The notes under the pieces are model-generated. The model saw only the letters and a list, made by a program, of their open reading frames with translations, searched no databases and was not told the origin of the DNA. From contig OZ316893.1 in NCBI GenBank assembly GCA_973895155.1, positions 17,552,770 through 17,616,769 on the forward strand: 64,000 nt of DNA, read 5' to 3'. Positions 7,575-64,000 of the stretch are shown here, piece after piece (within the stretch, counting starts at the first letter, position 1; each line of letters starts with the position of its first letter). This DNA is from Marsupella aquatica (Eukaryota > Plantae > Marchantiophyta). Both the position numbers and the translations under genes were made by a program.

Positions 7575-8214
7575 GTGTTTGACACACGTCGTGTAACTCG
7601 TTCCACAAAGTTGCTGCCTCCTACTTCTGTTAGCGCTGTTTTGGTTCCTAAATCTCTGCGTAGAAAGATGGAGAACCTCGACACGATTGCGATCCAAGAT
7701 GTTTCGGACTGCGCACTCGCGGAGACTGAGCTCATCTCAAAACATGTCATGTGTTTTGGAAAGGATTCTCGTGGATTTGACAAGGAGCCGCCTCGAATCC
7801 CTCTATGCCGATTGGTTCACATGGAGGTGGTTCGTACTTTGCAGAAAGATAGCTTTTCCATCGAGAAGCTGAAAGACTCATTTTGCAGTATGGGTTACAA
7901 TTCCTCCATAGGAATGCGTTTCTATGTTCAGCCAACGGATGAGAATGGAATTGTTCTGACCTGTACCCAGGAAATTCGTGAGTCATGGGATCCAATTTGG
8001 CAATTGGAGAACGAGAAGTTTGAGGCTGAATGCGAGGCCGATCCAGATTTTCTCGTGCTGAAGGATAAGATGTTCTCTATCTTCGATGGAAATCACCGGC
8101 TGTACTCATGGACGCTTGTTACCGAGGAGAACCCAGACAATCCAAAATACCATCCTTGTGTGCTCTGCACAATATTTAAGGGAGACAAGGGATCTCTTAT
8201 TGAAATTGAGGCAA
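7575..8214 (+). pseudogene. ParB-like/MTase-like accessory gene copy 1, exon 1 (5'-truncated; continues at 31221 after the Sola2-like insertion)
   Basis: KMFSIFDGNHRLYSW motif; homologous to 59239-59972; EIEA|TMHTVN junction is restored when 8215-31220 is removed. Confidence 0.85.
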
Positions 8215-31220: not shown

Positions 31221-34200
31221 CTATGCACACCGTGAATTAGTAAGTTCTCATTCTTTTCCGGTACCTTCTTTGAATCTTTCGAGTGTTCTATTTAAGAGCG
31301 CTCGGCGCTGGTTATAGATAAATTGTACTTTGACTCTAACTCGCTGCATCTCTTCGTGTAGGCTTGGCCAAGCCGTTGTTGAGCCATCCTGGATTCTCGA
31401 TGCAGATAGAATCAAACAAATTCTGGCGCATGACCTTGAGTATTACAGTAAATTGATTGACCCGGATAATTTCAAGAAGTTTGAGAGCATTTGGCTAAAG
31501 ACTCGGAAGGGGTCATGGTATACAAAGAAGATGCCACAAGAAGCTCTTGTTTACATTCTATGTGAGAATAAGATAAAGTCCTATTCTCACCAATTCAAGC
31601 TTGACATGGAGGCAGCCGAGGCTCAAGGGAGTCCCTGGTCGGTGGACGAGATTTCCAAATTAACGCCATGCGGCCATGATGAAGGACGCAACCAAAGACT
31701 GGGCAGTGAAGTCCTCAAAAATTATGCCCTTGTTAAGTCCTGAATTTGAAGATTTTCTTAGTACATGTGCAGAAATGTATGCTGTCACAAAGAGAAACAA
31801 GAGAGAGAAGAAGCCTGACACCGTCGTATGTACAATGGACCGCGCCCGATTGTTCAATGCTGTTTTTGCCCTAGACCCAAAGTTGCAAAGCACCCTACTT
31901 GTGGCACATTGCAATCCTGAGTTGCGGAGACAGTTTTTCCACCCAGCAAGTGTTAACGACGACCCAGTCAAACAATGGTGTCATACTTGGATCACTTGGA
32001 ATAGTGTAGAGGGAATTGTTGTCGGCATGTTACATTCATGTCTGCGTGAAGTAGAGCAGACGATGCCCGCGACTAGATTAGAAGAGTGGAATTGTGGTTC
32101 ATTTGATGATCTCGTTCAGTTTGTTACAAATGAATTCAAGAGATATGGTGATTCTGTGAAGAGTAAGTTCTTTCACACTATGTGGCCTTCAAAGTATCCA
32201 GACAAAGAAGACTACACCCAGAAAAACCAGAAGCGGGCTAAAAGGTATCTTTACAAGTTCTACATGCACATGGAGGTAACCAAACCTGATTACTTCTGGG
32301 CATATCCTACAGCTTTCATGAAGTGGATTACAATAAGTGAGGATGACGCCATAGCTGATTTGTACTCCATGTACCCAGCGGAGGGCATATTTCCTCCGAG
32401 ACCTATGACAGAATGGGAGAGAACTCACTGCCCCTGGTATCTAGATACAGATAGATGGGATTCTCCTTTTGATCAAAGGGAGAAAGATGCATTCCATAAG
32501 CTTTCAAAGCTAAACCCACATACCAGCAAAAATTGTGTCCGACATGAAGCAGGGCCTGCTAGACGATGTAGACAAGTCTGCCACTGGCTTGCAAAGTATC
32601 TGTGAAACGACTATTGTTCATGTGGACCGAAGTCAAAAACCTCGAGCTAAAGCAAAAGCGGAGTTAGCAGCACCAAGCGAGTCAACGAAATCTGGGAGGA
32701 AAAGTGAGTATAATGTTCCGTGGTTTGGCCAGCGCCTGGCGGTGGCTAGAACTGTGATGCGAATTCACATTTCTTTCTAGATTCTTAGGCCATCGTTGAG
32801 ACCTAAGTGATTTGCATTTGGTTAGGCGCTAGCTTGTTTCAATACTCGGGATTTACTTGTTCTAACTAAGACCTATTGATAATTTAGGAGGGAGGAAGTC
32901 TAATACAGCGGGAACAGGAGATACTAAAGTGGATGCTACATCTGAAGTTTCTGAGGCAAACACCGGAGCCCGATCGGACCCCATTACTCCTGTCGATAAG
33001 GGGAAAGTAATAGTTCCGGTCGACACCACAAGTACCAAGAAGAAAAGAAAGAGAGCTATCAAAGGTGGACCTTCTTCAAGGGAGAGTGTTGCAGCATCTG
33101 GTGTCCAACGTGAAGTTGGAAACTTCAAAACTAGATTGTCTCGTCATGCCATGGTTGAGACAAGCATATCCGAATTTTTTGACTCGACTTTCAACAAGGG
33201 GGAAAAACCTGATTGGGTTAGTTATGTGGAGAAGTGGGGGAAGGATCTCGTTAAGTCGGGATATAAAGAGAAGGGTGTTGTGCGGGGAGGAAAAGAAAGA
33301 TCGTTTGGAGTGGATGTGGGTTTCATTACCTACCGACCGGGTTCAAACCAACGATCATAGATAAGAAGGTTCCTAAATGGAACACTCCAGATCACTCCAT
33401 GGCTAGATCTTTTTTCAAGTCCATGGATCCATTTCTATCAGATGATGGATTCCTTGCAATTCTACAAATGGGGAGTATGATCCCATGTCTCAAGTCATTG
33501 CTGCCTGTCAGGAATCCAAGAAATTTCAGTGCATATGCACGCATAATGTTGTTATGTCTGTCCCGATGTACGCGGCAAAGACAGACCGTCAGGTAATTAT
33601 GTACTCTTAACTATGTCGCATTTTGAATTATATCTCATTTAACCTGGAGTTGCCAACTGACACTTGGGATTGCTTTCCGCAGATGTTTACCCTCAGGCTG
33701 GACATATTTGGTCGAATTAATGGGAAATGCAAAATTCCCAAAGACCCTAAATTCCGTCCACTCTCCATCAGTGAGGACCCCTCGGTCACCAATTTGATCG
33801 GACTCCCTTCTCTCAAATCCGATCCATTCCCACAAATGGAATTTTCTGGAAATGCTCGCCTGTCTGTTGGGTTTATGCAATCTGTCATTGAGCTTGTCAC
33901 CCGACCTCGTGATATTTTTATGGATTGGACCGCTGGGGCTGGAAGCTCCTTCATTGCTGGAGACTTCTCCGGGAGGTTTGTGCTCGGGATAGAACATAGA
34001 AAAGAATTTATTGAAACCACTTCGAAGGTTTTCATGGATTTTTTGTCTCCCAAAGAGATTGCGTTTTTACCTCCATCTGTTCCTATTGCCGACAGAAAGA
34101 AGCAAGATAAGCTTCGGTCGGTACTCAATTTTGATTCTGATGATGAGTCCAGTGAAGGTGGAGATGGAGAGGAACAAGGTACAGGGGACTCGGAGGAGGA

Positions 34201-34671
34201 AAAGGAAGAACCTCGTCGATCTCCTGATGAAACCGATAGTGATGACTCTTCCGAGTAATGTTCATAAACTTGTAAGCTTCTTTCTCCATTCCATCAAATT
34301 TATAACATTTATGTGTTGTTTTGGAGAAAGGCACCTAACTTGATGGATTTTGTTTGATCAGGTCAGAGTGGAATGCAAGGAGACGTTTCAAACTGCGAAG
34401 GAGGGTTGCTAGACACAACATAGAAACACCAGAAAAACCTTTTGTTCTTCCCTCCTATGCAGAGAAAGCCGCAAGGAAAGCCGAGAGTACAAGGACGCTT
34501 TGCTGGGAAAACAAAGGTCTTCGGTTACGAAGGGGTGTTGACAGGAAGTTCATTAAACATCCTTATGTTGATGACTTCTCCCGCAGCCAGTACGTAGATG
34601 ATGAGGCTGTGTCCACGGACAAATCCGAGAGTTTAGATTCTGGTTCCGAATCAGAATCTGTAGAATTGTGA
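31221..34671 (+). pseudogene. ParB-like/MTase-like accessory gene copy 1, remainder (end of exon 1 and exons 2-5)
   Basis: Colinear with 59950-63570 with the same intron positions; C-terminal MQSVIELVTRPRDIFMDWTAGAGSSFIAGDFSGRFVLGIE resembles the SAM-binding motif of N6/N4 MTases; several frameshifts. Confidence 0.85.
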
Positions 34672-35345: not shown

Positions 35346-35764
35346 GTTGCCACTAGATCGGATTTATTAAACATGGAGAGAAACGGTGAGCTCATGGATT
35401 GGGAGACAGCGTTCCTCCCTTCTCGTGTGCGTCCGGAAGAGAGCCATTTCCGTTCTTTTGAGTCACGGATGGCGACTAAAGAGACTGAAACCTCTACATT
35501 CCGGAACCATCACACTCTACCGTATGATGAAGCTATTAGTCCTGGAGAAAAGAACATCCCATGGATCGTTGATTCTCCTCCGCTCCCATTCACAAGCAAG
35601 TTCTCGTCTCATCAGGCTGTTCCCGTTGATGGTGTACTGCCAATCGATAGGAGAGTTCAAGAAATGTTTGGGTGAGTTGACTTTAAGGACAATAACATTC
35701 CCAATGAAGGTTATACGAGGGCAGTCCGTCGGGGTCCTTCTGAGAGATACATTCGATTGCGTGG

Positions 35765-38700
35765 TGTCACGTCATCAGCCTTGGCCTTAACTCGGGCTTT
35801 AGCTTTAAACGGGCACCTCCTTCGTAAATATGAGGGTTCGGGCAGGGAGGGAAGCGCGTAATGCACCTAATTCACGTAAACTAGCGCTAAGTGCGCCTAC
35901 TATTAGATACGGACATCTCCTAGGTATGGTTTATGTTCCGCCGCCGGAACGTACCTTAGTCGATAACAAGATCGACCCCGGCTTAAGGACTTCTAAGCCT
36001 TCGTGTTGTCCGCCTTTGATCCGAATTCAATGATACAGGTCCTCAACCCGTGCTCGCAACCACATACCCGCAAGCTGCACCCCGTGCACAACTCGGGTAG
36101 TGCGTTCGGCCCGGTATTGCCACCTATACACGAGATTCACACACACATACACGCGTACAAGCATACAATCTCGATTTACACGAAGGAAATAATGGGAAAG
36201 GATTTTACTACATAGGGGACATGTGCGTACACTTGGTTGACCCGACAGCTCCGGAATGAACAGATTCAAGGCCGAGAGAGTATACTACAATGGAGCCCGG
36301 CTCCGCACTCACCCGACGAGCTTAGTCCTACCCCCTCCCCTTGGTACTCTTTCACTCCCAGAGGTCGGGACTCCCCGCGCATACCACGGATGTCCAACTC
36401 TGAGACTAAAACCCCCCCTTGCCTCTACCGAGGGGTGCACTAAATACTAAGGGCCGGGGAACGGAGTGTCCTCCCGACCGAAGATTCGCTGACTTAGGTC
36501 CTAACTAATCTAACTGTTAGGCCAAAAAACGGCTGTGTCTTATTAGAAGATCCTAATCTACGCAGGCTGGACAGCATGGCAGTGCTGTTGTAACTAAGGC
36601 AGGTGCCTATCCCAAGAGCCTGACTTAGCTACTCCTAACCCTATTCTATTCCTACTCTGCCGCTAATGCCTGGTACGCTTGCCAGAGCCGCCCGAGTGGG
36701 AGCGGCCATCCCGCTGCTTACGAAGTCTGTCGTTGTTTGCCTTGAGGAGCTGGACCTGGTCCAGCAAAGATTCATTCTCTCGCTTCGCCGCGTCTGTCCC
36801 CTTCGCTGCCTCCTGGCATGCCTCCTCCAGCTGCTGGGCGTCGCTCGTCAGCTTGCCCGCCAGCTGGTCCTGCTTCTCGGCTTTGGTTTGGAGCCGTGCC
36901 ACTTTGGCCTGTAGCAACTACCTTTACTGCGGCAACTAACTCCTGATTGAAGAAACAGGCTACCTTCCGGGCCATGAACTCCCCGGTATCCCAGGCAATT
37001 TGATGAGAGAAATCTCCCAAAAGCCCGTTCAGAAATGTACCCGGTACGAAGAGTTCCGGGTGGTCCAGGTTGTGCCTGTCCGGAGTTGGGCACGGGCAGA
37101 CGTCAACACGCGCAGGGGCCGGGGCAGTGACATCCAGCCCTGGGGACGTAATGTTGGAAGGGGCTGGAGTGTCCTCCTGCAACAATGTCCGGTTCTCCGG
37201 AATAGCCATCGGTGGGTCTTTCGGAGACCCAGGCTCGAGTAAGACCTCCGCTGTACCGACTTCTGTACTTAGCCCGGCCTGTTGGATCGCATCAACGGTT
37301 GCGATAACCGACCCATCCGGTACCTCCTTGGTTACGACTACAACTACTTGTGGAGGTGGGGTGGGTGAAGCTTGCGTCTCCGCTGGACTTCGGGCCTCGG
37401 GTTGGGGCCGTCTCTCCAAGGCCGGAAAAACCCACCTAGCTGGGACCAGCTTTGTAATGTTGACACGGGGAAGGGTTCGTCGATCAAACCGAGCGTACCA
37501 CTCAAGAATGATCTCGATGTGGCTAGCGAAATACGCCTTCCCGCCAATGTACAGCGTCTTCCTTCGCCGCTCCATCTCTTCATGGAATTTCTTAGCAAAG
37601 TACGACGCCCACTTCCTAGGTCAATAGTTCTTGACCTGGATAACCTGGGCGGCGGAGATCTCCCCCCGGGGTTCCATCATGTGGAGGGCGTACCTTTGGA
37701 ACTCCAGTCACTCAGCTATCTCGGGGATGAGGCAGGTCCTCATCACGAACCCGTTGTCCACTGCTCCTTCTGAGGGAAAACTCGAGGATTGGTACTTGGC
37801 TCCCTTGCCCCCGGGAGCCCGTGATTCGACTCGATGGTCACCTTCGGGTAATCCGAAGATCATCTTGAGCCGTTCTTCCGTGAGGGACATATTCCTTCCC
37901 CGCAGCCGAGTATGCTGACGTGCGTCATCATAATTCTTGACGAATTCTGTCATGTCCTCCCCGTAGTACCTGCAAGTGTTCCAGGGCAGAGCGGCGAGGT
38001 GCTCGAATCCCTGAGTCTTCAGGTACACCACATGCTTGGGATGGAGGATGTTCTTATGCACGTTTTCCCCCATGCGGTGCATTGTCACCTTGGCCACGGC
38101 TACCGTGGCCAATGGTAACCCGGATGCAGTGGCGGGTTCCTTCCTCTTCTTCCCCCGTGACTGGCTCGGGGAAGGTGACACCTCCCTATCCTCTCGATCG
38201 GGCATAGGTAGTGCTACCGCCGTTAGTATTGGTCCCGGGGCGGCCACGGTCACCGTGTTGTCTACTGGAGCCGCTCCTTGGGTCCGAGCATGGGGAGGGG
38301 ACGATGTAGTGTTGGCCCCCTGAGTGTTTGCTCCTCTGGGCTGCCTGAGCAAGGGTGGGGTAGCCTCATCATTGTCGCTAAGGTCCACAGCGTTGATGAC
38401 GGAGCGTACTTGTACTGCTGGCGGGGCGATCGGCGGTGGGGGTTGGCTAGGCTGAGGCTGAGACTGAAGCTGAGCCTGAAGTTGAGCCTGAGCTTGAGTC
38501 TGCGTTGGTACGGGTACGGGTATGGGGTCCACTGGGCTGGCGCCGGTGTTTGCGGGTCTAGTTCCCATGAAGCTCTGCAGGTGCTGGTAGAAGTTCTCCG
38601 AAGCAAGTGCGGACAACCTTGTCAAACGGGTAGTGCTGGACTCGCTGTTGATGATAGCCCGAACCTGAGCAGGGATGTCGTTGCAAGTCGATCGTACCCG

Positions 38701-39465
38701 GGATATTGAAGACCTCGTCCGGAAGCCAAAGCAATGCTTCCCAGAAACCGATATATTTGTCTCCGTTGAAGAAGTACCCAGATACCTCTACTGGTCGGTA
38801 AAGCTCGCTCTGAGATGGGTAGTCAAAGTTAAGGATGTAGTGGTGTCGTCCTACTAGGCGGATGGCTCTCTCGTACTCGCGTTCGATTTCGTATCGGTGC
38901 GGGTTGGCGTGTTTCAATGAGTCGGCCAAGTGCCTTCCGGTAGATAGGAACTGCGTCCTGAATCGAATGGCCGAACTGGAGAGGATCGTGTGCGACATTT
39001 AGAGGAGATAGTAGTGGCGACTTAGAGCGAACGAGAGAGCTAGGGTCGAAGCTGGCGCGTGGACTGATGGACTGGTGCACTCCAAAGGGTCGGCTCCCTT
39101 TTTATACCTTGAGGGCTTGTCGATCCCCCGACATCTCCTCGTTGCCTATAGGCTGAACCGTTCACGCTTGTAGTGTACTGGCCACTCCGCCGGTCTGAGT
39201 CATCGCGTGTCAGTGGACGCCTCCCAAAGTTCGTTATACGGACCCGAGGGAGGGGCCCCTCCACGCTCATAACCCGGGCTTGCAAATGGCAATGCGCCGC
39301 CAGCCCGAACATGAATTACCCTTATTGACTAATGATTTCCTACTCATAATGGCTACCTAAATATTGTCGTTATGCTAATCATAGCGGCCTAAGATACTCC
39401 TAACGCGCGTGCTAGGCACGGTTTAGACCGAATTACTCATTACTCGCCGTACTGGCGGCGTCACA
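35765..39465 (-). mobile_element. Family B TG...CA single-ORF element, copy 1 (3701 bp)
   Basis: TGTCACGTC...GGCGTCACA; 5-bp TSD CGTGG at 35760-35764 and 39466-39470; homologous to 46241-50222. Confidence 0.92.
36663..38998 (-). pseudogene. Family B protein (Pro/Gln-rich, PMD/Athila-ORF-like domain, coiled coil), frameshifted and internally deleted
   Basis: ORF pieces 38558-38998, 37708-38625, 36772-37575, 36663-36917; LAALPW..EFVKNY..TRLRG..IFGLPEG..NGFVMRTC. Confidence 0.85.
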
Positions 39466-39989
39466 CGTGGTCTTGGATTTAAGAAAAATCAGAGGAGAGA
39501 AGCGGCAGGAGTGGAGGATGATTGCAACTCTGAAAGCTAGATGCAATCACTTATTTGTTGTTAATTCCTCCGGTTTTTCACAAAGAATGGCATCGCATTG
39601 TTCAGTTTGGTGATCACTTTAAGCTAGCACCGAGCGCTGCTTAAGCTCTTTCAATGTTTCGGGATGGAGTTGCCCTCGGCTTAGTTGTTAGGGTTTTTCC
39701 CGGATGTTGTCTTCAGGAATTCCATAGTTGTTCCTGCAGTTGTTGGCTAGCGCCGAGCGCTGCTTTTGTTTTATTGGCAATCCTCAGCCGGGGTCAACCG
39801 TGGCTTCTGTATATCAGATTTCTAGGCCTACAGGTTTTAACTTATATGTGCGTTTTTTGGACCTGCGCTGAATGCGTTATGTACTTTCCATTATATATGG
39901 CAGTTTTATTTTTCCCCTACGCATTTTGACATATATTGGTCTCGGATTTTGTTTATCTCAATTGTGAGACGATTTTATTTGTTGTAAAA

Positions 39990-42938: not shown

Positions 42939-43010
42939 ACAAGAACCAAATTGATCTTTGAGAGAAAAGAGTATTCCAAAATTGTTTGTTTCTTAAGTTG
43001 AATCAGATTT

Positions 43011-46100: not shown

Positions 46101-46240
46101 AATTCATCTCTAATCTGATTGACCACTTCCCACTATCGCCTTCTACAACAATTCTTTGTGCAACACTCAACCTGGAAGACAACATCAATGGATTTTCGAG
46201 TCTTCTTTCTGTTATGCCTTCTATGAATCTTCTTCCTTTC

Positions 46241-49200: not shown

Positions 49201-50222
49201 GGAGACGAACGCGGCAAAGCAAGAGAATGAATCTCTACTAGACCAAGTCCAGCTCCTCAAGATGGACAACGACAGACTCCGTAGGCAGCGGGATGGCCGC
49301 TCCCACTCGGACGGCTCTGGCAAGCACACCAGGCATTAGCGGAGAGTTAGGCTTAGAATAGAACTAGGAGTAGCTAAAACAGGCTGTTAGGACAAGTGCC
49401 GGCCAGAAGATAGCGGCGCTGACACATTAGCCAGCCTGTGTAGAATAGGTTAAACTAATAGGACAAGCCGTAACCAGGTTAGCGAGGATATAAGTTAGCG
49501 TAGATTTGGGCACGAGGCCAGGCTGGTCCTCAGCCCTTAGTATTTAGTAGCCCCCCGATAGAGGCACGGGGGGGGGGGATTTTTAGACTCAGAAGTTGAC
49601 CATTCGCGGTACACACGGGGAGTCCCAAACTTGGTGAAGTGTCGGAGTGCCAAGGGGAGGGTATACGACTAAGCTCGCCGGGTGAGTGCGGAGCCGGGCT
49701 CCGTTGTAGTGTATACTCCTTGGCCTTGGACCCGTTCATTCACGAGGTGTCGGGTCACCCAATCGTAAGTGTATGATCAAAGATGAATAAAATCCTTTCC
49801 CATCAATTCCTTCGTGTAAATCAAGATTTCTGCTTATGTATGAATGCATGTATAAGTCTCGTGTGCAAGTATCAGTGTCGGGCCGAACACGTCATGCCAA
49901 ACGTGCACGGGGTGCAGGTTACGGGTACGGGGTTGCGAGCCCTGGTTGAGCACTTGTACTAATGGATCTAGATCGAAGGCAGTAACACAAAGGCTTAGAA
50001 GTCCGTAAGCCGGGATTGACCTCGTGTCGACTAAGGTACGTTCCGGCGGCGGAACACAAAGCATACCTAAGCGTGCTTGTAAGTAAATGTATGCGCACTT
50101 AGCGCTAGTTTGGGAGAATTATACGCACACCGCACGTCCCCCCTACCCAAACCCAAATACTAACAAGGGAAGTGTCCGTCTTAGACGTAAATAGGCCTAA
50201 GGATTAGGCCAACGGCGTGACA
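46241..50222 (+). mobile_element. Family B TG...CA single-ORF element, copy 2 (3982 bp; first TG mutated to TA)
   Basis: TATGACGC...GGCGTGACA; 5-bp TSD CTTTC at 46236-46240 and 50223-50227. Confidence 0.92.
46715..49339 (+). pseudogene. Family B protein, full span but with many stops and frameshifts
   Basis: ATG at 46715 downstream of TATA-like TATAAAA near 46609; ORF pieces 46630-47793, 47815-48009, 47970-48509, 48519-48749, 48840-49025. Confidence 0.85.
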
Positions 50223-51928
50223 CTTTCCTTGTCCTCAGGATCCTGCGGGTTGCGACGTTGATTATTATAGCCTCGCTTTGGTTTAATGTATGATACAATT
50301 GCTCGCTTGGGATTGAGGAATTTGTTTTAATCCAATAGATTGCTTAACAATTGCATTCCAAGCTCGATCCAAGTTCTTTGCAAAGGCCATTTGATTGTGC
50401 AAGGCATTCCCTCAACAAAATAAGGGAACCTCATCTTTGAGATGTTATTGTTCGTAGCCAGTGTGAGAATATTGATCCCGACATGATCATCTCCAACTCT
50501 CTCATTGTTAATCGATGCTTGAGTGTGAGGATTGGTGATACACCCTCAAGCCAATAGTCTCTCATCATTGTCTCTGTAAATCAAAGCAAACTTCTTGAAC
50601 CACCTACTTCAATCGCTCAGGTCCTTGCTAATGAGTACACTGTCCTGACTGTGGACAGTGTCTCTCGTGGCATCTTGCTCCCCAAAACCTGCTTCCCGCT
50701 CCAGAGGACAATCCTCTTGGTTGTCACTTGGATAAACCAGGCCCTCTTGGTTTTCATTTGGATAAACTGGAAATTTGCTTTCCGCAAGCCTCACGCTGGA
50801 CCGATCCCACATAATTACTGAATTTAAGCTTTCACCCACCAGGTCCGCCCCTGCGTTTGGATAAGGTAGCTTGACAAGATGGAAGAATGCATCCTCAATA
50901 GAAACACTGATTCTATGGTCCCCAATCAGAATGTTGTGGCAAGAGTCCAAGGGAGTAATGCTGAAAATCGTCCCACCCGCAACCGGTTCATCGTTCAAGA
51001 AGAGATGAACTCGATCCCCAAGGGAAAACATATTATAGACCGATTCAAGGTTGACAGTAACTTTGACACAACTGTCGTGTGGACACAAGATGGGAATTAT
51101 TCACCGGCAAGAAAAGAGCAACGACGACAGGTTTTGACCTGGTTTGCCAGAATAGAACATGCACGTCGGTATCCCTCAACACGAGGCTCGTGTAGAATGA
51201 TTAAGGAATACAGTTCATCAGTAGGAAACACAACATGGTTCGATGGCTAGGCGAGCCTCGTGTAGAGCATCAGGTTAAATCTAAACATCTCCCAAAAGTC
51301 ATGGAATTATCACAATCATATGCATTTATGACAAAAAGTCCCACAAGAAGTAAGGAGAGGACCCACTATTGTTCAATGCTTCATTCTAAGAGAGAAGGAA
51401 AGTCCAATTCTTCATTTCCAATAGGGTACAAATCACCAATCCATGTAATATCATATTAAGGAACCACCCAGCTGATAAGTTTTGTTACAATTGAAGTCCA
51501 ATTCCTCAATAGCAAGACATAACCCATGACAAGACCCCCAATTGTCCTCAATTAAGAAGAAATGAAGTCTAATTCTAAAATTAGGGCACTTTTGGAAGAA
51601 ATGAGATCTAATTCCTCTTTGAAATCAAATATCCTATTAGAGTACCCCTATTTAGTAGAACTTCTGAAAGAAATGAGGTACAGATAATTGTCCTAAACAA
51701 ATATTCTCCAAGAGTACCTCGTGTTGTGAATGTGACAGAGACAATGACACGAATGAAATCCTAAAAGGGACGTACCAAGAACCCATGCTAGAAATTGTCC
51801 TCTAAACCATCCACGTCTTGCTAGAGAATGACGAGAGAATAACTAAGGACAACTACCCAATAAATACCAGTCCCAGATAGAAATCCTAAATATACTGCAA
51901 AAAAATGATAGGGTGGCCGCTTTGCCAG

Positions 51929-52128
51929 ATTGTCGTGTGGTATGATTTTCCAATATTTTTGGCGGCGCTATTAATGATGTCTCACAACTGGCAGATCATG
52001 ATGAGAGAATAAGGACATCTCCCCAAAATCCCAAAAATTCTGCTCAAACGTGATAGGCTGATAGCTCTGCACGATTGTCGTCTGGTATGATTTGTCGATA
52101 TTTCTGGCGGCGCTATTAATGATGTCTT
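51929..52128. repeat. ~55-bp imperfect direct repeat (ATTGTCGT.TGGTATGATTT...TGGCGGCGCTATTAATGATGTCT), two copies
   Basis: Copies start near 51929 and 52074. Confidence 0.75.
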
Positions 52129-52348
52129 CATGATCGGCCCCACTGCCCCAGCCTTTGTTGTGCAAATTCTTCATGTTTGCCCATTCCTCGTGTCAGGTAT
52201 ATATTTTAGGCAGATTTTCTCATTCATTCATTCCCTCATCTTTGCCCTCTCGCTCATTCTCCCGCCCTTTTGCTCATGCTTCTCTCCGCTGAGTTCTGCC
52301 CAATTCGTTCTCTATCTTGCAAATTAGTTCACACGTGCAAAGAGATTT

Positions 52349-53260
52349 CATGGCAAATCTATCAGAATTGGAGGTCCGAAAGATGGCGGTCGCAGCATTC
52401 ACCAGAGTTGAAGGTATTTCCACACAACAGTCGTGTAGATCTTTAGTTTTATTTTCTTTGTTTGCTTTCAATTTAAATTTCAGCCGTTGCTTCCACACGA
52501 GTTTGTGTAGATACATTATAGTAGTTAGCTTTTTGTGTTATGCGAGACCCAGTACTAAGTTTTCTACACAAGACTCATGTAGATGAGCTCCAGTACTAAC
52601 CCGTGAGCGCTCAGATCATGCTCAAAGGTAACCCTCAGTCTTTTGTCTCCAAATCATTATTAGACATTTTGTATCTCTATCTCCATGTGACTCTCGTGTA
52701 GATCCCAGACGTTCCTCATCCCATCAGAACTTCTGTATGAAAATGCATTGAGTAAATATCATTTTCATTTGCATTCACGCGACTCTTGTGTAGAGCATGT
52801 TACTCATCTCAGGCTAATTTGTTACCTTGAAGGCCAAATTGACAATGCCTTTAAACATTTGAAATCGATCAAAGAAAAATATGAGGAGTCCAAAATGACT
52901 GAGGATGTCCTAGAGGAACTTGAGACCCTACAAAACTGTGAAGGAGAAAGATGAAGAGATTAGTTCGATTAGAATGGATTATGCTGGCAGATATTTTTGA
53001 GCTCAGTCGAACCATCTTCAGACATGTCAGAAGTTGTGCCTAGTTATGAAGGAGGCCCCAAAGCTTGATGAGATCCATCAGAGTTAGATTCAAAGGCTCA
53101 CAAGGCAGTTGATTATCATGAAGGCCCAGGAGGAAGGCCATGTCCAGACTATCAAGAGGATGAAGAAGGAAGCAGCCTAGAAGACGTTTTTCTAGAAGTC
53201 ATCTCTCTCAAGACTTAGTTCTAGACAAGTTATTTAGTTGGAGATAGAGGCACCTAGATG
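52349..53260 (+). pseudogene. Decayed small coiled-coil gene fragment, function unknown
   Basis: MANLSELEVRKMAVAAFTRVE|gt...ag|GQIDNAFKHLKSIKEKYEE..., followed by stops. Confidence 0.3.
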
Positions 53261-54449
53261 AATATGTGCCCCAACTTTAGAAGATGGTAGTTGAGCGGGC
53301 AAAGTCCATTTTGATTGATTGAGTTATTTTCTGGACGAATTGTCCATTTTTGTGAATAATAAAGTCTTGGAATTTGTTTTGACATCTTGGACTCTGTTCT
53401 AAATCTTCCATTTTTGTTCTTTCCTAGGATTCCCTTATGTTTGTTTCAGCCACCCGCGCCTACCGCAGCCGTTAAGTCAAAGCACTATTAGCCACCAAAA
53501 TCCAATCGTCAATTCATGGTCTTTTGAAATGTGTCTGGAGGGTGACGATTGGAGGTGTTATTTAGGGGGGATTGTTATTGCAAAGCCCAAGAAGTACTTG
53601 AATGTGGTTGCCAATTGTAAGATTTCAAAAGCACCAAAGCACCAAAAGGGGAAGGTCTTTTTGACAGTGACGGTGGAGGATTGCGTTGATTGTGGATATA
53701 GTGAGTTCTCTCTTCTCGTTGAACAATATTGTGGCGCACATTGTCTGGAGCCAAATGATGCAAGAATGAACATAACGTCCTTAGGAGTTTTTTATCCATC
53801 CACTCATCGTTTGGGCATAGCAGTGGAGACAGGAAACAGGAAATTGTTATTGTAAAGGTGTACTATTTGGCAAAGTTTTTCAAAAATTCACGTAAGGAAC
53901 AACCACATACTTAAGCTTAAAATATTCCTACTCCCATAAGACACGACGTCAGATATAAGTGAAAGGTGTGCTTATAGTTGCTCGGAGAGGTTCCAATCCC
54001 TTGTCACTTGCTCAGATTATAGATAAAAAAGGGTTGTCATTCAATTCACTGCTGTTTAGATACAACAACATTTCTAAACAGTCCACTTTGGAATGCTTCA
54101 TTTAGTTCATATACTTCATTAGTGTGTTTTTTAAAAAGCCAAACCTTACAACCCATGGAGGAATGGAGTATGCTCAGGCGGGACCCACCACAAAGCCAAT
54201 TATAGTATGAATTAAGTTATCGGAAACATAGGGGTCTGTCAGGCAGAGTGTGAAACTAGCGCCAGGCGCTAACAAAGGATTAAGTACGCAGAATATAGGG
54301 ACGATAATCAAAGCTTACGGGACCATCCAATGACACTAACCAGATAAAACAATTTTTTTATAAATAAGTTATTGACCAGCGCCCGATGCTAACCAAAACC
54401 ACATAAAAAACTAGAGTAATATCCGTTGACTAAAGACAAAACAACATAG

Positions 54450-57400
54450 TATCCGTTATGGAATACGACACTTAAGGAAAAATCGAGTCCCTCTATAAAC
54501 CATTTGCGTTCTGCCTCTCCAACACAAGTCTGATTTCTCCAACTGTCAAAATTGGCTGGCTACACAGGGTAGACTCCTCTACATGAAACTTGAAGACATT
54601 TATGAACACCTAGTACAAATGTTTACAGGGCATATAAGGCTTGCCGCGGGAATGACGATGGAAGAAATCTTCATAGGAACAAGTAGGGAAGATGCACATT
54701 TGGACAAAGTAAGTGTTTGGGGAGCGAAGGTTCTCGTGAGTCCGTATTTTGAATTGTTTTCCAAAAGCAATTCCACTAATCACATCCCACTCTCCATCTA
54801 GAGTCATAGCTTCTTTTCGAGCCGACTCCATTCGTTTACTGTGAGCCACAGTTAGATTAGAGCGAGGTCTGGAGTTCCTCCCATTCCTACTACGAAGGCG
54901 CACGTTGGGCTCCGCAAAATTGATTTTCTCTGGAAATGTGTTTACATTGATTCTCAAGTCGAATGCAACAGGTACAGTTTGAGTTCGAGAGGTCGCAGCT
55001 GTTTGGACCATAGAGACTCCCTGCACTTGAAGGTACTCTATCTCGCCAGGCGAGAGGTTTGTTCCTTTCACAACTGGCAGGATGTCCGGTACAAGAGGAA
55101 GGCGTTCAACACCACAACACGGGCGGCTCTTGTAGCATGTGCTATTTGGGCAGAACCATATCATTTTGGCAATGGGCGTTCCTCTGAAAATGCAATGTCT
55201 GCTGACAACAATGCCGACAACACCAGCAGCAAAATAGAACCCTACTTTCTTGACACGATTTTGACACTCATCTTTGTGAGAATCTCCATGCAAGGTCCCA
55301 TTACACTGTGGCCCTGCCCCATATTTGGCCGTCCGTCTCAAATGCCAGCTCCCTCTTGGAACGTCCATTTCCAAAGGAGCTGATTCTGTCGGCAAACGTT
55401 GAAGCACAACAGGGGCATTGCGTGGTGGTTGAGATGATGTTGTTTCCCTCATGGCTTCAGGGGTGTTCGCAAAGGAATCACTTTCACTCGTTGAAGTGTC
55501 ACTCCCGCAAAGGTCTACCACACGATCTACTACATTGGTGGGAATGGAAGTGAACTCAATGTTGTTGAGATTCTTCCGTTTGAATCCTTGAGTATTTGGG
55601 GTAGTGATGAGAATGGTGTCATGCCGATGGGAGTCTTGTGGCGAGACAATCCCAGTTGCAAGTCCCTTCCTCTTAACCAATTTGGTGATGATATCTCCAT
55701 TCAGAGGAGAATTCCTACCCAGATCAAAATCGGCAGAGTTGGAAAGAATCATGTGAGTGGCTTCTTCGAATAACTTGGGTGAACCTGCTCGGTCTGCCAA
55801 ACGGAATGCTAATTCCTAGATAGGTGGCCCCTTCCCTCTATCTTTCCGATATGCACTGTAACCCGCAACTTGAGATATAGCTCGATTTTGATCAACTTTG
55901 CATGCTTCAAAGAGACCCACCATTTTTTGGGCTGCCCATGCTTTCATTGAAGCATGTCTTGACTCAGAACCTGTACAGTTTGGAATGAGGGCACTTTCTT
56001 CTGCGCTTTTGCTCTGCAATGAAGTGGATCCAGACCAACTTTAGTCAAATTGTTTAAGCAGCACCAGGCGCTAGCAATGTATATAATATATATTAATATA
56101 ATGTTGCTATTATCAAGTGTTCCTAAGTCATGAATATGGCAAAGTTATCTGTACAGTTTAAAGCAGCGTCAGGCGCTAGCAATGTGTATGATATGATAAT
56201 ATAATGTTGGTATCTGTACAGTTTAAAGCAGCGCCAGGCGCTAGTATAAACACATTGAGAAGTGACTATTGTACGCATTGATAAAACTTACCACGCGAAT
56301 GAAATTCCCCCACTGACGCCATCAAACGACCCACCATGATATCCAACTCTGCAACATCATCAATTTTCCTAGGACACAATTGCCTGCTTGCCACCACAAC
56401 ACAATCTCCCTAGAAACTCGGTACACCGCAACAAACGATGGAGCATTTCGCAATTTCTCCCACAGTCTTAGATGTTCAGGTTGCCTACCCTCCAGTACTC
56501 CCTCCGTGGAATGTCGATGGAAAGACTAGTAAAAGTGGAATGCATCGGAGCGTTCACGTTCAGGGTCTGGGTGACCTCCAAAAAAGACATTGCGAACGGC
56601 AATCCATCCAGTCTGAGCATTGTTGGCCATAAAACCTTGAATGGTAACCTCATGTAACCCATTTTCCTTACAAACCTCTATCATAATTCTCCATGCCTTC
56701 TCAAAGGACTCCGTGTCTTCAGCTTTTAGTTCGCATGTGAATATTATACAAAGAGCTTGAAAGTTGTGATCATAAACGTGTGCGCTAAAAGTAAACCAGT
56801 CGGTTGTCACTCGCTTCATGACATCAAAACTCACCCAAGCCCCTTCCAGTCTTTCGCCAGGTTGCATCTACCGTAGAAGATCTACACCAGATCCATGACC
56901 CTTGACTGACATTTTGAATATGTGGGGCCGATCTGCTAAACAACCCTGACCCGGCAGAAGATACCTTTGGAGGAAAGAAATATTATTTGACCTTTGCATT
57001 CGAGCTAGGAAATCTAACTCACCACGACCAGCCTGGTCCATTTGAACGCTACGACAAAGGGATGCAAATTTCTGAGGAGTAGATAGAACCATTAGAGACT
57101 TCCAAATTTCTGTTTCTTCAATATCTACGATGTTGTCAACATTCTTGCAAAGAGCTTTCACAAGCGAACCAATCGCCGAATTCAAAATCCTAGCCGGTTT
57201 TGCAAGAGGATTGGCTTCGTGATTTCTTTTTATTAAGTCCTCCGCCATCTTTTCAGCGCTCCTCGAGAAAACTTTTGTACTTGGATGGTTATGTTCACCT
57301 ATATGAACCGTGAGCCGAGACATGTGACTACAGGTTTCTGTATCAAGTAGGACCTGTGGATACATATAGAACAAGCGAGCATGGCAAGAGTCCACACAAA

Positions 57401-58312
57401 AAGGAATCTGTTCATAGTAGTGACATACTATATCACCCTCTTCAATGAACGAACCCACCACATGCTGGCCACTAAGCTTAGGGGTACCAGCCCAGGCTTT
57501 TGAATTGCATCTCTTCTTTCACCAAAAATACTCACAGGACTTGTTCCTGCACTCGACGAACCCAGTACAAGTGACTTTACCAAACTCCTAGTGTTTCTTA
57601 GGTTGCACGTTTGCGGTCGTCGGAAAAATTCTGGTCCAAATGTAACAATCTTTGGCACAGTCCATGTCACGAAGTCTGATCCTTTGGACTACATTTCCAC
57701 AATGGGAGGCAATTCAAATACAACATTTTCGTTGTACTTATTTGGCAAACAAGGAACTTAATCGTGTCGGAAGTCCCCTGCCGAGATAAATCTTGACAGT
57801 TCACTATGGCCCGTGGCCTTGAGTAAGGCGTCCATTGCACTCCGCCGGTAAACCTTATGGACACCTCCGAAAGTGGCCACCGATTCACTCTTAAGGCAAC
57901 TAGAGCCTGGAACTTCATGCTTCTCAGGAGGATTGGGTGCAACATCCTCATCTTCACTCTCAGATATTTCAACAACCTGGGGTGGAATGTCCTGAACAAC
58001 CGATTGAAGAGGAGTAGGTCTAACATGAAGCGTGTAACGAAGTCCGACATTCATGTGCCATAAATGTATTCCGTCATCCACATCAAATGCCGCAGCACGT
58101 TCAAGTCCTCCACTCAATGACTCCTCGGGAACAATCGACTCAATGTCATTGATTCTCAAATCAAATCTCCCGCACGGGTAGGTCTCGCTTACTTGCTTGT
58201 AAGTATCAGAAACTTGCATGGGAACCTTGACGACGTCCCCGGTACAAGCACGTGTAATAACAATTGAGCGCGACATTGTAGATGAATGAAGTGAAGGCCA
58301 GAGGAAATTCAT
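54450..58312 (-). pseudogene. Mutator-like DDE transposase with C-terminal SWIM zinc finger; intron about 56040-56290
   Basis: VSFDVMKRV (D1), GFMANNAQ (D2 position mutated), AFHF, NCTGSESRHA (E), SWIM-like PTCSYEDF...PCKHLY; upstream C/H-rich region CHARL..HNHP; stops and frameshifts. Confidence 0.78.
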
Positions 58313-59238
58313 GCACTAACCCAATCTCGACCGTATTGGTTGCACCACCCCTTCAAGGACCACCGGCCGTTAAAAGAGACGTTCCAATACGACAGAGAAC
58401 ATGCACAACTTTGCGTCCGTTGAAATCATAAATGAGACATTTGTCCTTTTTGCCCGGCAAGTGCAGGTGTCAAGAATATTTATTACATGAATACAACTAG
58501 ATAATAGCCTATACAAGTGCGTCCATTTCATTAGCGTCGAGCGCTACCTAAAAATCATTGGAATAACAATGACTTAATTTGAAAAGTCTCGTGACTAGCG
58601 CTTGGCGCTAGCATAATCATACACGAAATATTGATGAATTTGTTTTTCAAAATATTGCATCACAAGCATTTTTAAGCTCAAATATAGTGAATTGGTACTA
58701 GCGCCAGGCGCTAGTATTGATACAAAATACTTAATACCATAATATCAAGTAAAGTTTAGTTACTACGGGTGAAACGAGTACATTTGGAAGTTTGTTAACA
58801 ATATCTGTTACTAAAATAGAACGTTAATCAAATTATTTAAATGGCTAGCGCCGGGCGCTAGCATTTGTTCACCAATAAATTTTTGAATTTAGTAGTCACT
58901 TCTTCGTTAGCGCCCGGCACTGGCATTGCAGGTCTGTCAGAAAGGTGTTGAGACAACGGTAACATTTAACGGTAACTAATGTTTAGCGTGATGATCATGC
59001 CAACATTTTAGCGTAATTCACATTAATACTTATCGCAATTTCTAAATTGTCGCTTTCTGTCACGGATAAATAATATTGAATCTCGTCGTTCACAATGAGT
59101 AACGTCTCTCCAACCGATTACAAAGAGGGGAATAGCACTCATTGATCGGATATAATACGGCCGCAACTGTTAATATGGTATGGAAAACTGGTAATCAGTC
59201 GTGAGAATTCTGTTCGTACACCTTTCATCGTAAAGACG

Positions 59239-62200
59239 ATGGATGCAATCCCCTCCTTGTCGAGGGGGTATAGTGTGGTTGGGGATCAGGATCGTGGGTA
59301 TTGCGAGTCTTCTGAGTCTTCATTCTCTGGTTCAGTGTATACGCATCGAGTAACGAGATCCACCGCATTGCTTATTCCAATCTCTGGTATTTTGTTTGCC
59401 AAGCCAGCGAGAAAGAAGATGGAGAATCTTGACACATTTGCGATTCAAGATGTTTCATTTTCCAAGACGGATCTTATTTCAAAACATGTCATGTCATTTC
59501 GGAAGGATTTCAGAGGGTTTGACAAAGAGCCTCCATGAATTCCACTATGTCGGTTGGTGCATATGGAGGTTGTCCGAACTCTACAGAAAGATAGTTCTTC
59601 CATCGACAAGCTGAAGACTCTTTCCGTAGCATGGGATACAATTCTTTGATTGGAATGAGGTTTTATGTTCAGCCTACCGATGCTGAGGGAGTGCTTCTCA
59701 CTTGTACTCAAGAAATTCGTGATAGTTGGGATCCAATATGGACATCTGAGAATGAGAAATTCGAGGAAGAATGTGTTGCCGACCCAGATTTTTTGGTTTT
59801 GAAGGACAAAATTTTCTCAGTTTTTTACAGGAACCATAGGCTTTACTCGTGGACTCTTGTCACTCAAGAGAGTCCCAAAAACAAAGTACCACCCGCGTGT
59901 GCTTTGTACTATTTTCAGTGGCGACAAGGGTTCGCTGATAGAAATTGAAGCGGCTATGCACACCGTTAACCAGTAAGATACTCTTTTGTGCATAACTTCG
60001 TGAGTCATTGTGAATTGTTCATTCTTTCTAGCATAACTTTCCGAGGCCATGTTTTACGAGCGCCCGGCGCTGCTTATATGTTCTTCTCATTTCGTTCTTT
60101 TATTTCAGGCTTGGACAAGCCGTTGTGGAACCCTCCTGGATCCTAGACGTCGATCAAATTAAGCGGATCTTGATGCACAACCTAGAGTACTATAGTAAGC
60201 TCATCGACCCTGCAAATTACAAGAAGTTTGAGAATTTCAGGATGAAGACGCGAAAAGGATCATGGTACACAAAGAAGATGCCTCAGGAGGCTCTTGTGTA
60301 CATTCTATGTCAGGATAAGATTAAGTCGTATTCGAACCAGTTCAAGATTGACATGGAGTCCGTTGCGGCCCTCGGTACCCCTTGGTTGGTCGAGGAGGTT
60401 TCCAGAAGGCATGCCGTTATGATGAAGGAAGCAACCAAGGATGGGCAGTGAAAACCTCAAAAATCACTCCTTTGTTGAGTCCAAAGTTTGAGGACTTTCT
60501 GTCTACGTGCGCATAAATGTATGTTGTCACGGAGAGGAATAAGCGGGAGAAGAAGCCAGATACCGTGTTGTGTACCATGGACCGTGCCAGGCTTTTTACA
60601 GCTGTTTCGGCTCTTGACGCCAAGCTACAAAGTACTTTGCTTGTAGCACATTGCAATCCGGAGCTCCGAAGACAATTCTTCCATCCGAATAGCGTCAATG
60701 ATGATCCAGTAAAACAGTGGTGTCACACTTGGATTACATGGAATAATGTAGAAGGGATTGCGGTGGGGATGTTGCAATGTGCTTTACGAGAGGTCCAACA
60801 AACCATTCTCGTGAATCGTTTACAAGATTGGGCATGTGAATCATTCGAATCTCTCATTGACATAGTCACGAATGATTTTAGGAAATACGGTGACTCTGTC
60901 AAGGGTAAGTTTTTTAATACAATGTGGCCCTCAAAGTATCCTGACAAAGAGGATTACTCTTTGAAGAACCAGAAGCAAGCAAAATGGGACCTCTACCGTT
61001 TTTACATCCACATGGAAGCTACAAAACCTGATTACTTTTGGGCATATCCCGCCGCCTTCCTGAAGTGGACTGTAATACCGGAGAGTGATTCTTTAGCTGA
61101 ATTGTATTCTATGTATCCTGTCAAGGGAATTTTCCCAGCAAGACCTTTGAGTGAATGGGAGAGAACCCATTGTCCATGGTACCTAGATACAGATAGATGG
61201 GACTCGCCCTTTGATCACAGAGAAAAGGATGCTTTCCATAAGCTGTCTAAGTCCCAGATCCCAGTCAATGTTGTTTTTGACATGAAGCAGGGGCTTCCGG
61301 ACGATGTGGATCAATCCACAACACAATTGCAAACAATATGCGAGACAACAATTGTTCATGTTGACCGAAGCAGGAAGCCTCGCGCCAAAGCAAAAGCAAA
61401 TACTACAGCCCCAAGTAAATCAACAAGATCTGGGAAAAAATGTAAGTATAATTTGTTTCCTTTGGTTAGCACTCGGCGCTGCTATGGCAGTCAATATCTG
61501 TCACATTGTTAGCGCCCGACGCTGCTATGAGAGTCAATATCTGTTACATTGTTAGCGCCCGGCGCTGCTATGAGAGTCAATATTTGTTACATTGTTAGCG
61601 CCTGACGCTGCTATGAGAGTCAATATTTGTTATATTGTTAGCGCTCGGCGCTGCTATGAGAGTCAATATTTCAGAAACTGAATTGGTATTTTTAGTCAAA
61701 AAGTGTATATTTATGGCCAAGTCTTAGAGATAGTTTGGCCAGCGCTGGGCGTTAGCATTGTCTTTGTCTCAATATTAACGGATATCACCTCGGCATCCAT
61801 TTGAACAGGGAGAAAGTCAGACGCCATGGGGAGCGGAGATACAAAGATAGATGCCACCCTAGAGGCTTCTAGAGCCAATACCGGAGCACCATCCGATCCA
61901 ATTACTCCCGCCGACAAAGGGAAGGCGATCGCTCTAGTGGATGCGACCAGTACAAGGAAGAAGAGAAAAAGGACCATTGAGGGTGGATCTTCCTCTTGAG
62001 AAAGTGCTGCTGCTGTAGGTCTTCAGCGCGAAGTCGGGGACTTCAAGAGTAAACTTTCAAGGCATTGCCTTGTTGAATCTAGCATCTCAGAATTCTACGA
62101 CTCAACATTTAACAAAGGGGAGAAGCCTTACTGGTGAATGGTGTAGAGAAATGGGGAAAGGATCTCATGAATTCTGGCTTTGGAGAGAAGGGCATTGTGC

Positions 62201-63570
62201 GTGGTGGAAAGGAGAGATCGTTTGGAGTCCACGCGGGTTTTATCTACCTTCTGACAGGACTTAAACCATCTCTGCTAGACAGAAAAGTTCCGAAATGGAA
62301 TGTCCTTGACCACACTTTGGCCACCTCTTTCTTTCGTGGAATGGATCCATTTTTATCTGATGACGGAATGCTGGCCATTTTACATAACGGGGAGTACAAT
62401 CCGATGTCTCAGGTTACATCGGCTTGTCAGGATTCGAAGAAGTTTCATTGCATCTCGTTACACAATGTTGTCATGTCAGTTCCAATGTACGCGCCAAAGA
62501 CTGACCGACAGGTAAATTTCTCATCGTGACATCTGGTTTGCGGTTCAAAGAATGTTTATGAATGTGTCCATTGACATACCTTTCTTGGGTTATATTACAG
62601 ATCTTCACGCTCAGGCTGGACGTCTTCTGTTGAGTGTCTGAAAAAGGGAAGGTGCCAAAAGACTCGAGGTTTAGACCTCTGTCAGTCACGGAAGATCCCT
62701 CCATAACAAATTTAATTGGACTTCCCTCTCTCAAAGTCGATCCAACACCTGAGATGGAATTTTCTGGAAATGCCCGCTTGTCGGTTGGATTCATGCAATC
62801 TATGATTGAGCTCATCACTCATCCTAGGGATATTTTCATGGATTGGACAGTGGGGTCGGGTAGCGCTTTTGTAGCTGGAGACTATTCTGGGAGGTTTGTA
62901 ATTGGAGTGGAGAATAGGAAAGATTTTGTTGAAACTGATTCCAAGGTGTTCTTAGATCTACTTTCTCCAAAGGAAGTCGAAACTTTGCCACCCCCAATTC
63001 AACCACCCGAAAAGAAAAGGAGAGACAAGCTCCATTCTGTACTTAATTTTGACTCTGACGATGAGTCAAGTGGTGGTACAGCAGACGAAGATGAGGATGG
63101 CACACCTAAGGGGAAGGGTCAGGAACAATCCGCTGGCCAGAGTGACAGCGATGACTCTTCTGAGTAATGTTCTGAAACTCGTAAGCTTCTTTCTCCTTTC
63201 CAGTTCCTTCATGCTTTTGTGCTATCCATTCATACAATTGGTTGACGAACTTCTGTTCTGAGCACCTAGGTCCGAATGGAATACGAGAAGACGCTTCAAA
63301 CTCAGAAGAAAAGTAGCTCGTTTTGAAATTGTCACTCCGGAGAAACCATTTGTTTTTACCCTCTTATGCTAAGAACGCTGCAAGAATGGAAGATAATCAG
63401 AGGACTCTTTGTTAGGACAACAAAGGTCTCCGGCTACGAAGAGGAGTTGATAGAAAATTTGTCTGAAATCCTTATGTGGACAACGTTTGTAGGAGCAAGT
63501 ATGTAGATGACAAGGTGGTCTCGATCGAGAGGTCACAGAGCTCCGAATTGGAATCATTCGATTCTTGAAG
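59239..63570 (+). pseudogene. ParB-like plus N6A/N4C DNA-methyltransferase-like gene copy 2, 5 exons (introns 59973-60108, ~61442-61808, 62512-62600, ~63164-63269)
   Basis: Homologous over its full length to 7575-8214 plus 31221-34671; FLSDDGMLAILH, DWTVGSGSA, GRFVIGVE; GT-AG introns conserved in both copies. Confidence 0.82.
61465..61671 (+). repeat. Intronic 43-bp tandem repeat x5, each unit with the AGCGCCNGGCGCT palindrome
   Basis: Units start at 61465, 61508, 61551, 61594, 61637: GTTAGCGCCCGGCGCTGCTATGAGAGTCAATATTTGTTACATT. Confidence 0.95.
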
Positions 63571-64000
63571 CGTTTTTGCAGCTTAGATTTTACCAGCGCC
63601 GGGCGCTGTTATCATGATACATGTATTTATTATCCCAGATATGATTTGTTTACATTACATTGATAATAAAATGTATTAAATTCCTCATTTCCCTTACTGG
63701 CGCTCCCCAAACGTCTATTTTTCTAATTGTGAATTTTGAATCCTCCGTCCGTTCCTTGGCCCCGCATATTTTGTTGTTACCGGAAACATTCGTCTCTTTC
63801 TCAACGGTCCTTTTTGCGTTGAACCTTGCTATGATACGTTTTTGCTGATCTCCGAACCTAAACTCTCCATTAGGTCACTCTTGCAAGTTATTTTAGGCAC
63901 ATCCTCTCTCGAAGTCGGGTCATTTCAACAACACCGATCTTGTCATTAGCCTCAATTGCGTTTAACAGTGCCCACTAGATGGAGAAGAAGGAGATCATGT

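Follow-up and report, generated by a model that had tools for sequence, protein, structure and literature searches.

A decayed Mutator-like transposon in a liverwort pairs its transposase with a putative ParB-like, methyltransferase-fold accessory gene and its own 13-bp palindromes

The accessory protein VANC21 of the Arabidopsis Mutator-type element VANDAL21 binds motifs in the non-coding regions and tandem repeats of its own element (PMC5735166), and a preprint on Bostrychia presents VANC as the sole demonstrated case in which a transposon's protein binds the element that encodes it and modifies it (bioRxiv 10.1101/2025.02.11.637652). In the brown alga Ectocarpus, the accessory protein of Sola1-1_Ec32 is about 1100 amino acids long, joins a ParB-like domain to an N4C/N6A methyltransferase domain, is encoded on the strand opposite the transposase, and has been proposed to bind its carrier element and modify it (PMC12477816). 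The accessory genes PAG2 and PAG3 of red-algal Plavaka elements place a ParB-like domain (best hit for PAG3, 7BNR) beside inverted-repeat tandem arrays with a PF01555 methylase in the cassette, and accessory-gene homologues occur on Mutator elements of Chondrus (bioRxiv 10.1101/2025.02.11.637652). Chlorophytes with methylases fused to ParB and helix-turn-helix domains are also on record, as are DIRS1 methylases that are probably inactive (PMC4738411). Here we describe a 64-kb stretch of the liverwort Marsupella aquatica (contig OZ316893.1), called the window throughout, which is a nest of transposons with an element of the Mutator-like (MULE) type at its right end. This element sets a transposase gene against a divergent accessory gene, whose product is predicted to combine ParB-like and methyltransferase folds, and it is strewn with a 13-bp palindrome, AGCGCYNRGCGCT. 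The account we favour, tentatively and at slightly less than an even chance, is that this is a decayed, multi-copy Mutator-like transposon whose VANC-like accessory protein bound the element's own palindromes and shielded it from host silencing, its methyltransferase fold probably not being a standard methylase.

ParB-methylase accessory genes have already been proposed for algal transposons; what the locus adds is a land-plant Mutator version with an altered catalytic motif. The likeness to Sola1-1_Ec32 is one of published description. That system belongs to a brown alga and a Sola1 carrier, whereas ours belongs to a land plant and a Mutator-like carrier, and its description, as far as it was available, mentions neither an altered catalytic motif nor palindromes (PMC12477816). 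In PAG2 and PAG3, as described, ParB is fused to a 2-oxoglutarate oxygenase and the methylase to SET in separate genes, whereas here the ParB-like and methylase folds lie in one protein (bioRxiv 10.1101/2025.02.11.637652). With VANDAL and VANC the locus shares the Mutator type, an accessory protein and short motifs, particular to each family, that lie in introns, spacers and tandem repeats; the motif given for VANC21, YAGTATTAY, is however non-palindromic, and anti-silencing has been demonstrated for VANC but is our proposal here (PMC5735166). Pfam scans of the accessory gene and its relatives, in which rows with E>0.01 were disregarded as weak, gave no hit to a VANC-type family. A literature search, with subscription journals and Repbase outside its coverage, found, among the titles listed, no report of a ParB-methylase gene on a land-plant Mutator element. 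The locus supplies a candidate site, AGCGCYNRGCGCT, and a sister family with another site, making the algal proposal directly testable in liverworts. It also shows selective constraint on a methylase fold despite an altered catalytic motif, and such a system could be turned into a tool that finds its target by sequence and then spreads along plant chromatin.

The first-pass annotation of this sequence had placed the two genes head to head. This layout holds, with a minus-strand transposase opening at 58312 and a plus-strand gene opening at 59239 across a 926-bp spacer (Table 1). Its five-exon structure with introns common to two copies of the accessory gene also holds, all introns being GT-AG and four junctions identical. 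In both copies the intron-4 donor (GTAATG; 63164 in copy 2, 34255 in copy 1) contains a TAA in frame, and a protein made from unspliced RNA would therefore lack exon 5. Gene models from the liverwort Riccia vary in the presence of an exon-5-type tail, and exon 5 of copy 1 weakly matches the end of one of them, P0018 (E 0.002).

Table 1. Coordinates of the element and of the second accessory-gene copy (window positions)
Feature	Position	Strand	Remarks
Mutator-like DDE transposase pseudogene	54493..58312	-	two exons; intron about 56039-56291
Divergent spacer	58313..59238	no strand	five palindrome copies at 58533, 58597, 58700, 58847, 58909
17 copies of AGCGCYNRGCGCT	54258..63607		copy-2 element
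Copy 2 exon 1	59239..59972	+	ParB/Srx-like domain (predicted); frameshifts, stop, YRNHR replacing DGNHR
Copy 2 exon 2	60109..61441	+	middle domain, helical in prediction; candidate DNA-recognition part
Copy 2 exon 3	61809..62511	+	linker, then first half of predicted methyltransferase fold; YLLTG at 62248-62262
Copy 2 exon 4	62601..63163	+	putative SAM-binding half (DWTVGSGS ... GVE) and acidic tail; PF01555 E 5e-5
Copy 2 exon 5	63270..~63570	+	short C-terminal exon
Copy 1 exon 1	7575..8214 + 31221-31239	+	open ParB-like frame with DGNHR; cut by 23-kb insertion
Copy 1 rest of gene	31221..34671	+	exons 31362-32703, 32888-33592, 33683-34254, 34362-34671; frameshifts
Copy-1 3' flank	35376..39761	+	possible third gene, LTR-type (long terminal repeat) insertion, palindromes at 39626 and 39749

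The strongest evidence that the two genes belong to one element is the palindrome, which was absent from the first-pass annotation. It matches 22 times in the window against 0.13 expected, a number reached in 0 of 100 shuffles. Besides the copies in the copy-2 element, 3 lie at copy 1 (31297, 32731 and, just downstream, 34707) and 2 in its probable 3' flank. Within the copy-2 element one copy is 3' of the transposase, three are in the transposase intron, five in the spacer, one in intron 1 of the accessory gene, six in intron 2 (five of these in a 43-bp tandem array, 61465-61671) and one 3' of exon 5. None of the 22 falls in an exon as drawn, though exons make up 73% of the copy-2 element. Moreover, both copies have the palindrome in their first two introns and their 3' flank, though silent sites between them are saturated and introns 1-3 barely align (z 1.8, 2.5 and 0.1). 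Because the same palindrome runs through the transposase intron, the spacer and the introns of the accessory gene, the assignment of both genes to one element is supported, with the linkage known from this one locus. The earlier idea of a transposon-borne epigenetic writer or reader keeps its transposon-borne part here, with writing a conjectural role. CG and CNG are frequent in the palindrome, and nine of its ten single mismatches are C>T or G>A, which would fit the decay of host-methylated cytosines.

Both accessory-gene copies are pseudogenes with frameshifts, copy 2 also with premature stops, a point on which the first-pass annotation was silent. Exon alignments of the two copies place out-of-frame gaps near 59613, 59881, 60404-60441, 61251, 62132, 62243, 62384, 63096-63124 and 63357. 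Copy 1 is in addition cut by a 23-kb insertion (8215-31216) with a 4-bp duplication, GCAA, whose excision restores the reading seen in copy 2; no transposase was found beside copy 1 within the window. Every one of 30 bins across 50000-64000, including the spacer, is covered by contigs from four public runs, which represent this whole region in many diverged versions. The listed pieces are at most about 540 bases long, too short to bridge the two genes, and their depth is not readable as copy number. No RNA run was listed as holding the sequence, which is no indication about expression. At 2-3 of the frameshifts of copy 2 (59881, 60440, 62132), other copies carry extra letters in three of the four runs. 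Given these diverged versions and extra letters, the locus is a single dead representative of a family with many copies. A host gene that merely adjoins a transposon was ruled out by the multi-copy, decayed state and the palindrome common with the transposase intron, and bacterial contamination by the GT-AG introns and the nested plant retroelements.

The accessory gene is not a chance reading, because an exhaustive search with exon 1 of copy 1 returned 229 relative clusters at E<=0.001. The named organisms among the 17 clusters looked up are Riccia sorocarpa and two Adiantum species. One Riccia relative, P0155, is a full-length protein of 1207 amino acids that aligns to window exons 1, 2 and 4 in order, and a search with its C-terminal part gave 36 hits, all of them Riccia paralogues. 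KAL3677308.1 is an example of an intact Riccia member. A quick version of a tree places copy 1, along with most Riccia rows, in a clade of 43 rows (96). A word-based search for long ParB-like relatives returned none among 388 candidates, although the exhaustive search recovered such relatives. Pattern matches in viral contigs (0 of 30) and prokaryote genomes (0 of 7) contained no relatives either, both being weak negatives.

Between the window copies, the proportion of non-synonymous sites that differ (pN) is 0.10-0.16 and that of synonymous sites (pS) 0.70-0.85 in six segments running from the ParB-like through the methyltransferase domain. The methyltransferase domain itself gives a pN of 0.13 and a pS of 0.70, with a ratio of non-synonymous to synonymous rates (dN/dS) of about 0.07 for the methyltransferase half; constraint on the acidic tail is weaker (pN 0.26). 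Purifying selection acted on all domains of the accessory protein between these copies. Since pN is low while silent sites are saturated, the altered methyltransferase domain was evidently performing some function while these subfamilies diverged.

Structural models were made for relatives from Riccia (P0162 and P0027), not for the broken window genes. The P0162 model, with a predicted local distance difference test score (pLDDT) of 65, superimposes on M1.HpyAVI with Z 15.6 and a root-mean-square deviation (rmsd) of 3.5 over 186 residues, and on CcrM with Z 15.1; Foldseek finds CcrM at E 2e-9. Window exons align to P0162, in which motif IV (134) precedes motif I (302), and the copy-1 counterpart of exon 4 matches M1.HpyAVI at E 1.4e-4. 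Matches of PF01555 to the gene and its relatives are partial, and a PDB sequence search with P0162 alone gave nothing useful. We found that these comparisons bear out the earlier call of a beta-class fold, and the C-terminal domain is strongly predicted to have a beta-class amino-methyltransferase fold. The proposed LSDDG.LAI stretch and motif-I stretch (ELVTRPRDIFMDWTAGAGSS in copy 1) are present, and the motif I proposed to bind S-adenosylmethionine (SAM) is kept as DWT[AV]G[AS]GS..G[IV]E in both copies. Of the 42 relatives scanned, 25 have DF.GG.G, and most of the remaining 17 are truncated.

The fold and the order of motif IV before motif I are the same as in CcrM, M1.HpyAVI, rotifer N4CMT and Marchantia DN4MT1. 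Identity of beta-class enzymes to the model is 9-18%, and their structures match the methyltransferase part only. All four keep DPPY or SPPY according to published accounts (PMC10406627 and, for DN4MT1, its preprint), unlike the accessory protein. The motif previously read as GFI[D/Y]LPTG is readable in neither copy: copy 2 has GFIYLLTG, and copy 1 lost one base at that codon. The register in exon 3 comes from an alignment that includes the query itself, which makes its E-value circular, so that only the register was used. Counted by alignment column in the 28 Riccia rows that cover the motif, the first residue is Asp in 27 (DLPS 11, DMPT 5, DLPT 4, others 8 of the 28 rows), the pattern D-x-[PS]-[STI] holds in 27, and the base-stacking aromatic at the fourth position in none. 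The catalytic motif (D/S/N)PP(Y/F/W) fails, with YLLT in copy 2, and on this basis we do not class the accessory protein as a standard amino-methyltransferase. The change is family-wide in Riccia rather than a product of copy decay, which supports the earlier caveat that this may be a pseudo-enzyme. One gene model from Adiantum nelumboides (P0118) has motif IV as DVPF, with an aromatic, a candidate active branch; some branches may thus be active as methylases. Marchantia DN4MT1, named in the first-pass annotation, is not a close analogue: that protein keeps TSPPY and, in the account available, belongs to a tandemly duplicated pair expressed in late spermiogenesis; orthology to DN4MT1 was ruled out by the same TSPPY.

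An active writer is the alternative on which the methyltransferase evidence bears most directly. The protein would load at the palindromes and use a variant D-x-P-[ST] site to place N4-methylcytosine (4mC) or N6-methyladenine (6mA) on the element that encodes it, and 4mC on the CG and CNG cytosines in which the palindrome is rich would block host 5-methylcytosine (5mC) or mark self. The beta-class fold, a motif-IV Asp, motif I and following acidic residue that are mostly kept, a methyltransferase half as constrained as the rest (by the dN/dS given above), the one Adiantum DVPF and the methylase activity predicted for the Ectocarpus protein (PMC12477816) are all consistent with it. Yet none of the 28 Riccia rows has the Tyr of (D/S)PPY, which in N4CMT is modelled as stacking on the target base (PMC10406627), and copy 2 reads YLLTG. 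We regard an active writer as doubtful.

At the N terminus, copy 1 indeed has the intact DGNHR motif noted earlier (8086-8100). Of the 150 listed relatives, 96 keep [DE]GNHR and 28, many of them fragments, gave no motif match. The N-terminal 584 residues of P0027 were modelled with pLDDT 79. PadC ranks first among the 48,161 chains compared with this model (Z 7.5, rmsd 3.1, 99 residues aligned), and KorB, Pnob8 ParB-N (Z 6.5), sulfiredoxin (6.1) and SerK (5.5) also match this part. In the Atlas, the neighbours of the ParB-like domain (window 7668-8213) are fungal DUF3723 (0.94), ParB_N (0.91; 11% of members) and DUF6551, and a DGQHR model matches the domain at E 0.06. The ParB fold called by the first-pass annotation is thus recovered by structure search with moderate support: we assign the N-terminal domain to a predicted ParB/Srx fold, less firmly than the methyltransferase fold. 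A PDB sequence search with this part gave nothing useful. With ParB, Noc, KorB, PadC and fungal DUF3723 the protein shares the N-terminal fold and a GxxR-type motif; it differs in a large insertion before DGNHR and in that no ParA-like partner gene was noticed in general Pfam scans. We take DUF3723 to be an accessory gene of Starship elements, and a literature search found no paper treating it together with ParB. The middle domain in exon 2, 25% identical to P0155, is all-helical in the model of a Riccia relative, and KorB aligns over model residues 19-383 including this domain, weakly (Z 6.9, rmsd 7.0).

The transposase has an N-terminal Cys/His finger (HxGxHxH), a D..D..DxxH..E core with the candidate catalytic Glu in ESRHAS, and a C-terminal SWIM-like finger, CxC...PCKH, a pattern recognised by eye. 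Similarity of its frame to relatives begins at 58276-58285. It is decayed as well: there are frameshifts, five stops in two stretches read, an Asn for the second catalytic Asp, and a Tyr for one Cys of the SWIM-like finger, where the contigs of other copies carry at 54674 a base that gives Cys. The 13 relatives, one from Calypogeia fissa, are 47-61% identical and keep both Asp positions and DxxH. The nearest Atlas clusters are MULE (0.92; ten of ten in one clan). In the previous label of SWIM-MULE, the MULE part draws on the motifs and the Atlas, and the SWIM part is a candidate from the finger pattern; neither MULE nor SWIM reaches a Pfam hit in the window transposase, and a PDB sequence search with the transposase profile gave nothing useful. 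Because a Pfam MULE match is also absent in 13 of 13 relatives, we place it, with moderate support, on what appears to be a divergent branch of the MULE type.

MULEs are described as having 8-11-bp target-site duplications and either long terminal inverted repeats (TIRs) or non-TIR ends (PMC6446971). No TIR was found within the window, including near the inferred left end. A possible third gene lies 3' of the accessory gene in both copies (35376-35770 in copy 1, without a Pfam match; start near 63980 in copy 2, running to 64000). As this third-gene-like start and palindromes occur 3' of the accessory gene, the element probably extends beyond the right end of the window at 64000. To its left lie decayed, multi-copy frames of unassigned type (52340-53855, plus strand), probably part of a neighbouring transposon, and GGCGCTA half-sites in a duplicated stretch (51881-52127).

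The missing left TIR makes plausible a helper in transposition or inheritance, in which a ParB-like clamp gathers element DNA and pairs distant ends, or tethers excised copies, with no epigenetic role and with a need in integration like that for MudrB. The report that mudrB is apparently required for integration (PMC6446971) fits such a helper. It would however leave a constrained SAM-binding fold unexplained, and the palindromes are internal and intronic like VANC sites, with no clustering at the end that lies within the window; the right end is outside it. We consider a helper of this kind improbable.

ParB proteins load at palindromes (parS), act as clamps and bridge DNA. In the anti-silencing account that we favour, a dimer of the accessory protein would recognise the palindrome as ParB does parS, and would perhaps close on nucleotide and spread along the element. 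The methyltransferase fold would keep SAM and DNA binding; because the aromatic that holds the flipped base is missing, it would write no standard mark, but could cover or read CG/CHG sites. Protein and palindrome may change together between families, as do VANC and its motifs. A relative on one contig (L002) is 63% identical in the ParB-like part and has an intron at the same place as window intron 1. That intron (551-990) holds 12 copies of AAGCC-N4-GGCTT (0.13 expected) and none of AGCGCYNRGCGCT, and the copy-2 element has no copy of the palindrome of L002.

Several observations weigh against the anti-silencing account. Among the five contigs related to the accessory gene, each only 1.2-1.9 kb long, a palindrome array appears in L002 alone and in none of L001, L003, L004 and L005 (1.2-1.8 kb). 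The top Foldseek rows for the ParB-like model are Noc/ParB, 7BNR among them, but at a non-significant E of 0.15 or worse; scans of the accessory gene gave no Pfam ParB hit, and the best fold Z is under 8. The motif-IV Asp of 27 of the 28 Riccia rows and the single DVPF make catalysis conceivable. Finally, two unrelated DNA transposons in the window carry private palindromes (13 and 7 copies) and a ParB-like gene was not found there, so palindromes need not imply this protein. This last point, together with the zinc fingers of the transposase itself, speaks for palindromes that are transposase-binding sites or by-products of tandem repeats, with an accessory gene that acts elsewhere or is a passenger. 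We think this quite improbable: a passenger would not be expected to show a pN/pS of around 0.17 where silent sites of the two copies are saturated, or to have more than 35 Riccia paralogues, and the sites lie in the accessory-gene introns of both copies and of L002.

Beyond this locus, the anti-silencing account leads to a broader conjecture, which is bold and more apt to fail than to hold, that seed-free land plants harbour a large and diverse family of transposon-borne, ParB-type sliding clamps, which would load at parS-like palindromes peculiar to each family and move a repurposed amino-methyltransferase of bacterial type along the entire element. If true, the family would be a nucleotide-gated, spreading, sequence-programmed machine for anti-silencing or self-marking in plant chromatin, and its target could be read from the element's own introns.

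The window contains private non-coding palindromes in each of three unrelated transposon types within 64 kb. The insertion in copy 1 is a 23-kb DNA transposon, presumably Sola-like, with inverted ends of about 32 bp and its 4-bp duplication. It has transposase-like frames (9411-12905, plus strand), opposite-strand accessory frames (25936-30186) with a weak RING/PHD-like finger, no detected ParB-like domain, and a private palindrome, AAGGAC-N4-GTCCTT, that occurs 13 times, 12 of them at 13189-13522. A third DNA transposon (41195-43190 and 44000-46240, minus strand) gives a weak DUF7869 hit (E 0.02); GGGATCC-N2-GGATCCC occurs in it 7 times, four of them within a 111-bp tandem array. Two LTR-type copies of 3.7-4 kb, 75-82% alike and in opposite orientation, have frames without a Pfam match and lie at 35765-39466 and 46242-50222, with 5-bp duplications CGTGG and CTTTC, respectively. 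Inside the 23-kb element sits a Copia-type retrotransposon (14950-25014), itself interrupted at 16758-21358 by an inverted, 97-99% identical copy of the element at 2522-7199.

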